A stretch of 57,566 bases of DNA from Patescibacteria group bacterium (GCA_041651535.1 JBAZIZ010000004.1:90341-147906); one strand, 5' to 3'. Shown: positions 33,879 through 57,267, numbered from the stretch's first letter. Notes: generated by a model not told the origin, from the letters alone. Translations and numbers: made by a program.

Positions 33879-33887
33879 TTTATAAAA

Positions 33888-33927
33888 ATAACCCCACCTT
33901 GATCCTCCCCCTAATAGGGGAGGAAAA
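33888..33927. repeat. GC-hairpin repeat element copy A (AACCCCACCTTGATCCTCCCCCTAATAGGGGAGG)
   Basis: The reverse complement aligns with 56938-56979 over about 40 nt. Confidence 0.7.
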
Positions 33928-33939
33928 AAATCTGAAATC

Positions 33940-53947: not shown

Positions 53948-56881
53948 CTAACTTTTACTTATTTCTAAAACAATATTTTTTTCCGCAATCTTTTTTTCTT
54001 CACCTTCATTTTGCTTTTCAGTAATTTCACTAGCTAAAACATTTTTCTTTATTTCTGAATTATATTTTTCAAAAACATTTCTTATGAGTTCATCTTCAGT
54101 TTTAAAATAAATTTTAACCTGATCGCTGATTGTTAAATTTTTCTCTTTTCTTATTTGATTGATTGTTCTTACAATTTCTCGGACTAAACCTTCTTCTTTT
54201 AATTCTTCGCTCACAAAAACATTCAAACAAACTTTTAAATCAGTGTCTTCTTTAACAATTTCATTTTCAACTAATTTTGTATTATCTAAAAATAAAACTT
54301 GTTTAACATTTAATTCCTCAGCTATTATATCCAAATAATTTTTATCAATTTTATTTTTATTTATTTTTAAATAATTTAATGGCTGACGAACTTTTATTTT
54401 TGCTTCTTCACGCAAGGCTAAACCAAACTCAACTATTTTTCTTACTGATTCCATATCTGACAAAACTTTTTCATTTATTTTATCTTCAAGACTTTCAGGA
54501 AAATATTCTAAATGTACTGATTCTTGATTTGGATTTAATTTCAAAAATATTTTTTCCGCAATAAAAGGTGTGAATGGGGCAATTATTTTTGTTGTTTCTG
54601 TCAAAACATAGTGCAAAGTTTGTAAAGCTTTTTCTTTATCTTTTGCATCATCACCTTTAAAACGATCACGACTTCTTCTAACATACCATTGTGAAAGTTC
54701 AGTTATAAAATCTAAAATTGGACGAGCAGCTTCGGCTAATTTATATTCTTGCATCTTTTCATTAACTTCTTTTAACAAACTTTGTAATTTAGAAATTATC
54801 CAAATATCCAAAACATTATCTGAATCGGCTTTTATTTTTTTCGCAACAAAATCTCCAGAAAACATTTCGTAAAAAGAATAAATATTCCACAAAGTATTTA
54901 TAAATTTATTATACATTTCTTTTACACCTTCTTCAGCAAAATTTAATTTTTCAGCATGCATGACTGGTGAAGTAACTAGATAATAACGCATTGCATCAGC
55001 TCCATATTTTTCCAAAACAAGCATTGGATCAGGAAAATTATTTTTTGATTTTGACATTTTTTGTCCGTCTTCAGCCAAAACTATACCGTTAACAATTACA
55101 TTTTTAAAAGCTGGTGAAGAATCGTCTTTTTTTATCGCTGGATTTTTTCCTCCAGTCAAAGCTGTGGCTAAAACGTGGAGTGTATAAAACCAACCACGAG
55201 TTTGATCTTGTCCTTCAGCAATAAATTCTGCTGGAAAAATTTTTTCAAATTTTTCTTTATTTTCAAATGGATAATGCATTTGTCCATAAGGCATAGAACC
55301 AGATTCAAACCAACAATCCAAAACTTCTGGAATTCTTTTATATTCTTTGCCGTCTTTTTTAATAATTATTTTGTCAACAATATGTTTATGAATATCTGTA
55401 ATTTTTTCTCCAGATAATTTTTCCAATTCTTCCACACTGCCTATACAAATAGTATCGCCGTCTTCACTACGCCAAATAGGCATCGCTGAACCCCAAAAAC
55501 GATTTCTAGAAATTGCCCAGTCACGAGCACCTTCAAGCCAAAGACCAAAACGTCCATCTTTGATATGTTCTGGAACCCAATTTGTTTTTTTATTATTTTT
55601 TAATAATTCTTCTTTTAAACTAGTAACATCTACAAACCAAGAAGAAGTAGCATAATTTAATAAAGGAGTATCACAACGCCAACAATGCGGATAACTATGC
55701 TCATATTTTTCTTTACTAAATAATTTTCCATTATGAGCCAACCATTTTATTATTTCAATATCAGTACTACTATGATCTTCTTTTGGTTTTACTTCCAAAC
55801 CAGCAAAATCAGTTACATCTTTGGTAAAAGTTCCATCCATATTTACATGTTGAACAAAACCAACTTTATATTTTCTACCAACTTCATAATCATCTTCACC
55901 AAAAGCTGGAGCAATGTGGACTATACCTGTTCCGTCTTCAGTACTTACAAAATCAGCTCCAACTACTTGAAACGCATTTTCTGTATTAGCAAAATATGGA
56001 AATAAAGGTTCATATTTCAAACCAAGCAAATCTTTTCCTTTGACAACTTTTAAAACTTCAAAAACATCATTTTCTTCATCTTTAAAAATATCTAGAAGTC
56101 TTTCTTTGGCTATAATATAAATTTCATCATTATGTTTTACAAAACTATATTCTATTTTTTCTCCCACAGCTAACAAAACATTTCCTGGTAATGTCCAAGG
56201 AGTTGTTGTCCAGGCGAGTATAAAAACATCTTGACCAAAACCAAATTTTTCTTTTGAGTCTAAAATTTTAAACTTTGCTGTCGCTGAAATATCTTTTATA
56301 TCTTTATATCCTTGAGTTACTTCAAAATTAGAAAGTGGAGTCACACAATGAGGACAAATATGCATTGCTTTTTTTCCTTCATAAATCAAACCTTTATTCC
56401 AAAGTTCTTTGAAAACCCACCAAACTGTTTCCATAAAACTAAGATCCATAGTTTTGTAATCATTTTCCATATCTACCCAGCGTCCAGTTCGATGGATTAT
56501 TTTTTTCCAATCTTCCGCATATTTCATAACTGTTGCTCGACAAGCTTCATTAAATTTATCTACTCCGTATTCTTCAATCGCTTTTTTAGAATTCAAATTT
56601 AATTTTTTTTCAATTATATTTTCAATTGGAAGTCCATGACAATCCCAACCCCATTTTCTTTCTACTCTTTTTCCTTTCATTGTCCAATAACGTGGTACAA
56701 CATCTTTCATCAAACTAGCGACTATGTGTCCATAATGTGGAAGTCCAGTAGCAAAAGGTGGACCATCATAAAAAGCGTAGGGATTTTTTTCATCTCGTTC
56801 TGAAATTGATTTTTCAAAAATCTTTTTTTCATCCCAATATTTTAATATTTCTAATTCGTTTTCATTTGAGTTATATGGCAT
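53948..56881 (-). CDS. ileS: isoleucine--tRNA ligase, type 2 (eukaryote-like)
   Basis: YDGPPFATGLPHYGHI (HIGH), KMSKSKNN, CP1 editing insertion. 977 aa. Confidence 0.97.
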   Translation of the reverse strand: MPYNSNENELEILKYWDEKKIFEKSISERDEKNPYAFYDGPPFATGLPHYGHIVASLMKDVVPRYWTMKGKRVERKWGWDCHGLPIENIIEKKLNLNSKKAIEEYGVDKFNEACRATVMKYAEDWKKIIHRTGRWVDMENDYKTMDLSFMETVWWVFKELWNKGLIYEGKKAMHICPHCVTPLSNFEVTQGYKDIKDISATAKFKILDSKEKFGFGQDVFILAWTTTPWTLPGNVLLAVGEKIEYSFVKHNDEIYIIAKERLLDIFKDEENDVFEVLKVVKGKDLLGLKYEPLFPYFANTENAFQVVGADFVSTEDGTGIVHIAPAFGEDDYEVGRKYKVGFVQHVNMDGTFTKDVTDFAGLEVKPKEDHSSTDIEIIKWLAHNGKLFSKEKYEHSYPHCWRCDTPLLNYATSSWFVDVTSLKEELLKNNKKTNWVPEHIKDGRFGLWLEGARDWAISRNRFWGSAMPIWRSEDGDTICIGSVEELEKLSGEKITDIHKHIVDKIIIKKDGKEYKRIPEVLDCWFESGSMPYGQMHYPFENKEKFEKIFPAEFIAEGQDQTRGWFYTLHVLATALTGGKNPAIKKDDSSPAFKNVIVNGIVLAEDGQKMSKSKNNFPDPMLVLEKYGADAMRYYLVTSPVMHAEKLNFAEEGVKEMYNKFINTLWNIYSFYEMFSGDFVAKKIKADSDNVLDIWIISKLQSLLKEVNEKMQEYKLAEAARPILDFITELSQWYVRRSRDRFKGDDAKDKEKALQTLHYVLTETTKIIAPFTPFIAEKIFLKLNPNQESVHLEYFPESLEDKINEKVLSDMESVRKIVEFGLALREEAKIKVRQPLNYLKINKNKIDKNYLDIIAEELNVKQVLFLDNTKLVENEIVKEDTDLKVCLNVFVSEELKEEGLVREIVRTINQIRKEKNLTISDQVKIYFKTEDELIRNVFEKYNSEIKKNVLASEITEKQNEGEEKKIAEKNIVLEISKS

Positions 56882-56937
56882 ATATAAAAGTTTATAAGTT
56901 AATAAGCTTGTAAGCTAATTTATTTGTTAAATTTTTT

Positions 56938-56979
56938 GTTTTCCTCCCCTATTAGGGGAGAAACAAGGTGGGGTTATTT
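56938..56979. repeat. GC-hairpin repeat element copy B (TTTTCCTCCCCTATTAGGGGAGAAACAAGGTGGGGTTATTTT)
   Basis: Inverted relative to copy A (33888-33927). Lies between the ileS T-box and the ileS ATG. Confidence 0.7.
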
Positions 56980-57031: not shown

Positions 57032-57232
57032 TAAAAAAACACTTGCAAATATAGGAACTTGAAATTCAAGCGGTACCATCCTATTTCTACAAATGTAGCA
57101 CTTATTTTAGCTATTACGGGCAAACCCGAGAAGTTCTACTTTTTTTCCGCCTAAGACGGATAAATTTCTTCTTCTAACCTGTAAAAAATACTTTCTGCTG
57201 ATAACAGATCAAAGGTTTTTATAATTATTTTA
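57032..57232 (-). promoter_or_regulatory. T-box leader controlling ileS
   Basis: Minus strand 57083-57050: AUAGGA-UGGUACC-GCUUGA-AUU-UCAAGU-UCCUAU is a canonical antiterminator with a 7-nt bulge. It is preceded by Stem III-like CUAC/GUAG (57097-57086) and CGGG-UUUG-CCCG (57127-57116). A U7 tract lies at 57038-57032. Confidence 0.75.
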
Positions 57233-57238
57233 CAAAAT

Positions 57239-57267
57239 GATTATATAATTATTTATGTTTTTTGTCA
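57239..57267 (-). promoter_or_regulatory. consensus promoter TTGACA-17-TATAAT for the ileS leader
   Basis: Minus strand: TTGACA 57267-57262, 17-nt spacer, TATAAT 57244-57239. Confidence 0.6.

Follow-up and report, generated by a model that had tools for sequence, protein, structure and literature searches.

An ultrashort-Stem-I T-box in front of ileS in a Patescibacteria group bacterium, probably joined to an intrinsic transcription terminator

The window analysed here is the whole of a 57,566-nt stretch of DNA from a Patescibacteria group bacterium (GCA_041651535.1, JBAZIZ010000004.1:90341-147906; G+C 27-29%), in which ileS, encoding an isoleucyl-tRNA synthetase (IleRS) of 977 aa, is carried on the minus strand at 53948-56881 (Pfam tRNA-synt_1, 9.6e-144, plus Anticodon_1 and DUF5915). 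Among named homologues of the protein, the closest are isoleucine--tRNA ligases from Candidatus Magasanikbacteria and from other Patescibacteria. In front of the gene, and on the same strand as all of the leader features given below, lies the ileS leader at 57217-57033, which was confirmed, at the level of sequence and predicted structure, as a genuine T-box riboswitch in a tiny-genome bacterium of the candidate phyla radiation (CPR). It is preceded by a sigma-70-type promoter at 57268-57240 (TTGACA 57268-57263, 17 nt, TATAAT 57245-57240; 12/12 in a consensus scan), and transcription is predicted to start near 57233. The leader is read as an ultrashort-Stem-I T-box, which most likely acts by attenuating transcription. 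The promoter, helices, bulge and loops listed for it in an initial annotation were all present on the minus strand; the coordinates given there for AUC-A, A1/A2, CGCUUG and CAAGUG were each one base too low (AUC-A occupies 57202-57199, not 57201-57198).

The leader was searched with the Rfam T-box model RF00230, as the initial annotation had suggested. A match was obtained at 57204-57050 (E = 5e-11 for the region alone, 3e-9 when the whole window was searched), the sole Rfam match in the 57.5 kb at relaxed thresholds; the T-box itself was thus recovered, while its score of 54.6 bits fell below the gathering threshold of 93 and Stem I was mis-assigned. At gathering thresholds no Rfam family was found across the 57.5-kb window, and no T-box match was found in the window or in any of the 20 relatives tested. 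T-box regulation in Patescibacteria is therefore invisible at the Rfam threshold, all 21 leaders tested there (the window and 20 relatives) having been missed. Relatives were collected by a protein-guided scan with one genome per species, giving 80 ileS loci, mostly from Magasanikbacteria or unclassified Patescibacteria, of which about 43 have UGGUACC upstream of ileS. A covariance model (R1), spanning Stem I, Stem II, Stem IIA, the linker and the bulge, was built from 17 related leaders with the window excluded, and was used because MAFFT alone misaligned the 3' strand of Stem I wherever an insert was present. R1 matched 46 of the 80 loci and a single site in the window (57220-57072, 61 bits, E = 1e-12), which together with the RF00230 result bears out the annotated ileS T-box with its near-consensus antiterminator. 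Among the 34 loci without an R1 match, two Acidimicrobiia included, no T-box was found in the nine searched at a relaxed threshold; one R1-matching leader (L066) also gave no T-box match in that search.

The share of cells that pair is 96.4% in the R1 alignment; it falls to 72% in shuffles and to about 52% if partners are shifted by one column. Changes on both sides were seen in 21 of 22 pairs, and none of 500 shuffles reached any observed measure; the alignment is model-fitted and so favours the structure, and the specifier hairpins were also found independently by plain search. The covariation that the initial annotation had proposed to look for around 57193-57216 is accordingly present.

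Stem I occupies 57217-57176, where R1 aligns the window as AAC-CUUUGA-UCUG-UUAUCAG-CAGA-(insert)-GUU, followed by AGAAG-AAGAAA...AAGUAGAA-CUUCU of Stem II and by CGGGUUUGCCCG. Its base helix (AACCU 57217-57213 / AGGUU 57180-57176) is followed on the 5' side by an internal loop UUGA, its upper helix (UCUG 57208-57205 / CAGA 57197-57194) closes a terminal loop UUAUCAG at 57204-57198, and a U-rich 13-nt insert lies on its 3' side at 57193-57181; both helices covary, with 7/7 pairs changed on both sides. The specifier AUC (57202-57200), with the purine A at 57199, takes loop positions 3-5, like an anticodon loop. Across relatives the same plan recurs, with a base helix of 3-5 bp, a 4-bp hairpin and a 7-nt loop containing AUC-A. 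In 42 of 43 related leaders the hairpin loop contains AUC and then A or G, the usual form being a 7-nt loop NNAUCAN, and the hairpins are as different as CCCG-UCAUCAA-CGGG, CCUG-UUAUCAG-CAGG, CUCG-UUAUCAG-CGAG, GUGG-CAAUCAA-CCAC and CUUUAG-CUAUCA-CUAAAG. AUC is an isoleucine codon and agrees with the downstream ileS. The initial annotation had placed AUC-A in a 7-nt loop closed by UCUG/CAGA inside AACCU/AGGUU, exactly as R1 does, and had called the specifier ambiguous; that qualification can be dropped, since AUC is invariant in the hairpin loop of the relatives and the helices around it covary.

The long Stem I of other T-boxes, with its specifier internal loop, AG bulge and distal loop (the elbow platform), is absent, as the initial annotation had noted. 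Nor is one hidden further 5', because promoters sit immediately upstream of Stem I: about 20 nt upstream in the window, and with a median of 14 nt from the end of the -10 box in the relatives, where a promoter of at least 10/12 was found in 30 of 46 leaders. In 13 relatives (L002, L003, L007, L017, L028, L031, L039, L048, L060, L067, L072, L075 and L076) Stem I is a three-way junction, with a second, variable hairpin 3' of the specifier hairpin where the window has its 13-nt insert. The base of Stem I was also inspected for a kink-turn (K-turn): in the window UUGA stands 5' and the insert separates it from its 3' partner, the relatives have GA, UA or AA, and the arrangement GGC-GUU-GA-U...G-GA-GCC of high-GC leaders (see below) fits a K-turn.

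Stem II (57175-57129) has a base of AGAAG (57175-57171) and CUUCU (57133-57129), with AGUAGAA at 57140-57134, and all of its 11 pairs covary. The internal loop AAGAAA / AAGUAGAA is conserved and lies at the position of the T-box S-turn, GAAGAA and AGUAGA being near-invariant across relatives, and the stem is capped by a distal hairpin UUUAUCCGUC-UUA-GGCGGAAAAA. In the closest relative (L201; IleRS 83% identical) the base carries a compensatory change from AGAAG/CUUCU to GAAAG/CUUUC and the distal hairpin is different, within a T-box that is nearly identical overall. Stem IIA, a conserved helix CGGG-UUUG-CCCG at 57128-57117 followed by CCCGUAAUAGC, forms with the F-box-like CCCGUAAUAGCU a IIA/B pseudoknot region at 57128-57109. 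Among 43 relatives, the penultimate loop base and the base that follows GC, which pair in the pseudoknot, covary as A-U (20 leaders), G-C (13) and C-G (2).

The discriminator (57106-57051) was aligned at high posterior probability to RF00230 positions 146-219, including positions 189-219, where the 7-nt bulge UGGNACC stands between A1 and A2. It comprises a purine motif AAUAAGUG (57106-57099), Stem III CUAC-AUUU-GUAG (57098-57087), helix A1 (AUAGGA 57084-57079 / UCCUAU 57056-57051), the bulge UGGUACC (57078-57072), which is invariant in the 46 relatives, and helix A2 GCUUGA-AUU-UCAAGU (57071-57057), closed by a G.U pair. A1 covaries among relatives (AUAGGA, ACAGGG, GUGAGA, CAAGA, GCAGGA). tRNA-Ile carries the discriminator base A73, which fits UGGU. 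No tRNA gene was found in the whole 57.5-kb window, and neither the window nor 60 related loci yielded a tRNA-Ile gene with which the anticodon and base 73 could have been checked. The RRRxG-Stem III-AA arrangement of the window agrees with that given in a review (PMC7583486).

In the minimum-free-energy fold A1, the bulge and A2 are embedded in a predicted nested terminator at 57095-57033. A 10-bp enclosing helix is formed between CAUUUGUAGA (57095-57086, the loop and 3' strand of Stem III) and UUUGCAAGUG (57049-57040); together with A1 it gives 17 stacked positions with one A.A mismatch, carries the intact bulge and A2 on top, and is directly followed on the 3' side by U7 (57039-57033). The pairing of the flanks in the window was compared with shuffles (p = 0.008). 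An analogous enclosing helix was seen in about 21 of 44 relatives with differing sequences, 14 of the 21 at p <= 0.05 against shuffles, and joins a stretch immediately following the purine motif, in many cases the Stem III 5' strand, to the bases before the U-run; its paired variants include GCACC:GGUGU, GCGCC:GGCGU, GCCAC:GUGGU, UCACAG:CUGUGA and GAGUGAAACU:AGUUUCGCU. A few of the 44 have canonical terminators. When 3' domains were folded by the same procedure, 31 of 43 CPR leaders, against 1 of about 16 canonical T-boxes, kept A1-bulge-A2 in the minimum-free-energy fold; the canonical leaders follow the textbook mechanism, in which the terminator takes its 5' strand from the 3' strands of A1/A2. 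For a terminator built in that way, no complement to UCAAGUUCCUAU was found downstream in the window. Stem III was not seen in L010, L011, L013-L016, L021, L022, L027, L037, L040, L045, L057, L058, L072 and L076; in the leaders without it a terminator hairpin (e.g. GCACGAA-UUA-UUCGUGU) comes right after A1 and has at most 2-3 nt in common with a possible GC extension of A1.

Several other ways of reading the leader were weighed against this structure. The RF00230 alignment deletes 47 nt of the distal Stem I, merges what is left with Stem II and puts the Stem II GAAGAA in the specifier loop, and it was rejected as a structural guide because it thereby implies a Phe specifier (UUU); annotation based on that model would give the same wrong specifier. 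If the alignment were right, the window would have a truncated canonical Stem I (AAGUA ... GAA) with UUU or AUU near 57163-57158 as specifier and an unrelated AUC hairpin. AAGUA and GAAGAAGAAAUUUAUCC are indeed aligned to specifier-loop positions of RF00230, and the canonical layout GAA-N-codon-A is found elsewhere (GAA-G-GUC-A in L099), but such a leader would read UUU before ileS, would need the 47-nt deletion and several non-pairs, and would leave unexplained an AUC hairpin that is conserved and covarying, while the bases in question are the invariant GAAGAA of a Stem II whose helices covary in 46 leaders; it is scarcely credible. The mode of output could also be misjudged, if the leader were a translational switch as in actinobacterial ultrashort ileS T-boxes and its U-run were incidental AT-rich sequence. 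Every ultrashort T-box described in those parts of the literature that treat the class is translational, and one leader (L138) lacks a U-run and has an A1 3' strand that could pair with a Shine-Dalgarno-like sequence. Against this, no Shine-Dalgarno sequence was found before the ileS AUG at 56881, and the start codon lies about 150 nt past the discriminator and U7 (about 60 nt in L201), which is out of reach of a sequestrator helix; a sequestrator using AGGAGGAGG at 57000-56992 was rejected, that sequence lying in an inserted block absent from L201. Moreover, a U-run (U5-U8) starts 30-50 nt after the bulge and 9-19 nt after A1 in 43 of 44 CPR leaders, always preceded by a helix, at a background chance of about 0.09 per 20-nt window for a run of at least 5; of 41 high-GC ultrashort leaders, only 1 has a U-run. 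Translational output is thus quite improbable for the window. Hairpin-plus-U terminators are visible after genes upstream of the ileS promoters in several relatives, and these, with the positioned U-run after a helix and the distant AUG without a Shine-Dalgarno sequence, argue for transcription termination as the output.

How the terminator would be built was weighed likewise. The initial annotation had proposed that CGCUUG (57072-57067, the last bulge base and the 5' strand of A2) pairs with CAAGUG (57045-57040), breaking A2 from its 5' side. The six-base complementarity exists, and in two relatives (L054 and L059) the terminator seems to be made by downstream sequence pairing with the bulge and the 5' strand of A1; such a hairpin would, however, have a 21-nt loop and only -6.8 kcal/mol, against -12.0 for the Stem III, A1 and A2 fold that it replaces and -20.4 for the nested hairpin, it was never seen in minimum-free-energy or centroid folds, and no relative has an equivalent. 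That pairing is therefore very unlikely, and CAAGUG is instead part of the 10-bp helix with the loop and 3' strand of Stem III. It is also conceivable that the nested hairpin and U7 are a constitutive or leaky attenuator and that the tRNA acts otherwise, for instance on RNA stability or polymerase pausing. Most family members are predicted to fold antiterminator and terminator together, so that tRNA binding need not oppose a terminator in whose fold A1-bulge-A2 persists, and in the class with abutting hairpins the overlap is only 0-3 nt. A full tRNA-sensing apparatus is nevertheless conserved and covarying right upstream of the terminator in 46 species, and the enclosing helix consistently consumes the Stem III/purine segment needed for capture of the tRNA 3' end, which makes an attenuator indifferent to tRNA unlikely.

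The leader is thus read as a probably functional ultrashort-Stem-I ileS T-box joined to an intrinsic transcription terminator; we infer that it depends on tRNA, that it terminates, and that the terminator competes with the Stem III/purine latch instead of the 3' strands of A1/A2. In published work, Stem III and its purines are required for binding of the tRNA 3' end, and the Stem III/purine segment latches onto the tRNA/T-box helix only with uncharged tRNA. With transcription beginning near 57233, the nascent leader would fold a small Stem I showing AUC-A in its anticodon-like 7-nt loop; the S-turn Stem II and IIA/B pseudoknot would fold next and give an anticodon-binding pocket, and the discriminator (purine motif, Stem III, A1, UGGUACC bulge and A2) would fold last. 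Uncharged tRNA-Ile(GAU) would pair its anticodon with AUC and its 3' ACCA with UGGU, keep Stem III and the purines in place and so block the 10-bp extension, and polymerase would pass U7 into ileS. With charged tRNA-Ile there would be no latch, UUUGCAAGUG would displace the 4-bp Stem III and lengthen A1 downwards by 10 bp, and the long interrupted hairpin and U7 would then end transcription. Stem III is suggested as the point of competition because the enclosing helix consumes the segment needed for 3'-end capture.

A number of observations weigh against this mechanism. L201 keeps the enclosing helix without a compensatory change, adding only one bulged C, and the register of the helix in the window (loop and 3' strand of Stem III) is unlike that of most relatives, which use the G of the purine motif and the 5' strand of Stem III. 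About 18 of the 44 relatives have a separate hairpin abutting A1 with an overlap of 0-3 nt, and about half of the CPR leaders are without Stem III, so the competition cannot be uniform across the family. A simple terminator scan calls nothing at the terminator of the window, the helix being AU/GU-rich and interrupted. The contrast in U-runs between the CPR set and the high-GC ultrashort leaders is partly compositional, such runs being frequent in AT-rich DNA. At the pseudoknot pair the window has a U.U mismatch, and its IIB helix is the weaker for it. Finally, the kinetic argument that transcriptional T-boxes need the elbow platform argues against an efficient switch without one (PMC7583486).

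Between the terminator and the ileS start lies a block of about 100 nt at 57021-56926 with three strong hairpins (57018-57003, 57000-56966 and 56966-56936; regional folding z-score -6.4), which includes AGGAGGAGG with no start codon after it. The block is taken as an insertion and not as part of the T-box, because it is absent from L201, whose leader is about 92% identical by eye in the rest; for the same reason its hairpins (57018-56936) were rejected as a second regulatory element. The block also holds, at 56935-56978 on the minus strand within the ileS leader, one copy of a repeat of about 45 nt (AAUAACCCCACCUUG..CUCCCCUAAUAGGGGAGGAAAA); the other copy in the window, at 33887-33930 on the plus strand, lies between convergent open reading frames (ORFs) next to a hairpin plus T-run; the core of the repeat is absent from the 80 related ileS loci.

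Some further leaders were noted in the course of the searches. L136 (3702-3814, minus strand; 0.53 GC; IleRS 41% identical to that of the window) has an ultrashort ileS leader with a nested terminator of the same kind, made by pairing of AUCACC, the loop of Stem III, with GGGUGAU ahead of U5, so the nested design is not confined to Magasanikbacteria. L138 (7613-7721, minus strand) is a low-GC (0.44) metagenome ultrashort ileS leader without a U-run, whose A1 3' strand CCCUUU can pair with AAAGGGGG just before the AUG; because it looks translational, both output types seem to be present outside Actinobacteria. In L049 (1020-1290) and L050 (1284-1453) the T-boxes lie about 550-750 nt upstream of ileS, and L049 has an ORF of 126 aa between terminator and ileS and a tRNA-Ala(UGC) gene just upstream. 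Two candidates for unusual architectures were discarded: an apparent tandem Stem I in L049 was a single T-box with an insertion of about 130 nt in the distal Stem II, and an apparent short-stem valS T-box (L099) had a normal long Stem I. A SAM riboswitch (RF00162, 46.3 bits, threshold 44.4) was found in L018 (894-1003, plus strand) about 1 kb upstream of ileS, in a genome without an ileS T-box.

A wider claim can be put forward tentatively, at somewhat less than even chances: that a CPR lineage of dozens of species and a few low-GC lineages attenuate transcription without elbow contact, with A1-bulge-A2 left folded and the decision made by competition for the Stem III/purine latch. According to section 6.2 of PMC7583486, the elbow platform of a long Stem I is held essential for transcriptional T-boxes, which must capture tRNA before polymerase reaches the terminator, and only translational T-boxes are said to be able to dispense with it. 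If true, the claim would contradict the current opinion that fast capture of tRNA by transcriptional T-boxes depends on the Stem I platform, and the antiterminator fold would not in itself be what prevents termination. A family that combines an ultrashort Stem I with a terminator offers a natural test of the kinetic argument, as an apparent counter-example to the platform requirement, and the nested terminator provides a way to ask if the Stem III/purine latch alone sets the outcome.

Ultrashort Stem I ileS T-boxes of Actinobacteria were reportedly treated by Sherwood, Grundy and Henkin in 2015. The class is described, in the portions of bioRxiv 10.1101/2023.02.28.530422 and PMC7583486 concerned with it, as translational in output and acting on ileS alone, its short helix bearing the specifier in the terminal loop and having no elbow-binding double T-loop; the examples cited in those portions are from Mycobacterium smegmatis, M. 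tuberculosis and Nocardia farcinica. In a published T-box database translational ileS T-boxes were sought only in Actinobacteria, and RF00230 was used for the rest; a literature search found no paper on T-boxes in Patescibacteria or the CPR. A metagenome scan with a pattern for Stem II/IIA only yielded many high-GC (0.60-0.75), apparently actinobacterial, ileS leaders, which R1 matches at 35-58 bits and the examples read have, 3' of the discriminator, a hairpin and then a Shine-Dalgarno-like AGGAG near the start codon. Their Stem I (GGC-GUUGAU-CCGG-CCAUCAC-CGGG-GA-GCC) and that of CPR leaders (AGC-AUUUGA-CCUG-UUAUCAG-CAGG-GA-GCU) follow one plan, and with the published description of the class this upholds the likeness to actinobacterial short-Stem-I ileS T-boxes seen in the initial annotation.

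In its predicted structure the leader of the window is a member of this ultrashort-Stem-I ileS class, with the specifier in a terminal loop, no platform, ileS downstream and AUC combined with UGGU; a translational sequestrator helix over a Shine-Dalgarno sequence, which belongs to the class, is absent from it. It shares with the actinobacterial leaders a Stem I plan of 3-bp base helix, 5' internal loop of 6-7 nt, 4-bp helix, 7-nt loop NNAUCAN and 2-nt 3' loop, the absence of an elbow-binding double T-loop platform, the regulated gene, and a Stem II S-turn, IIA/B pseudoknot and discriminator with UGGUACC. It differs from them in that the CPR expression platform is a hairpin and U-run, not a Shine-Dalgarno sequestrator, and in its host, a member of the Patescibacteria/CPR. 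Further differences are that the CPR leaders vary (GA, UA or AA) at the GA of the K-turn-like 5' loop, that Stem I has a 13-nt insert on its 3' side in the window and a whole extra hairpin in relatives, and that about half of the CPR leaders do without Stem III. The class having so far been described as translational, ileS-only and actinobacterial, the putative terminator output and the CPR host appear to be new here. With canonical T-boxes (RF00230; the tyrS and glyQS types of B. subtilis) the window has in common A1-bulge-A2, the A2-closing G.U pair, Stem III with its purines, Stem II with IIA/B and F-box, an intrinsic terminator (putative in the window) that ends in a U-run, and a gene for an aminoacyl-tRNA synthetase further downstream. 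Unlike them, it is without a long Stem I and its AG bulge, distal loop and specifier internal loop, and its predicted terminator pairs the Stem III region with the 3' flank while A1-bulge-A2 stays intact.

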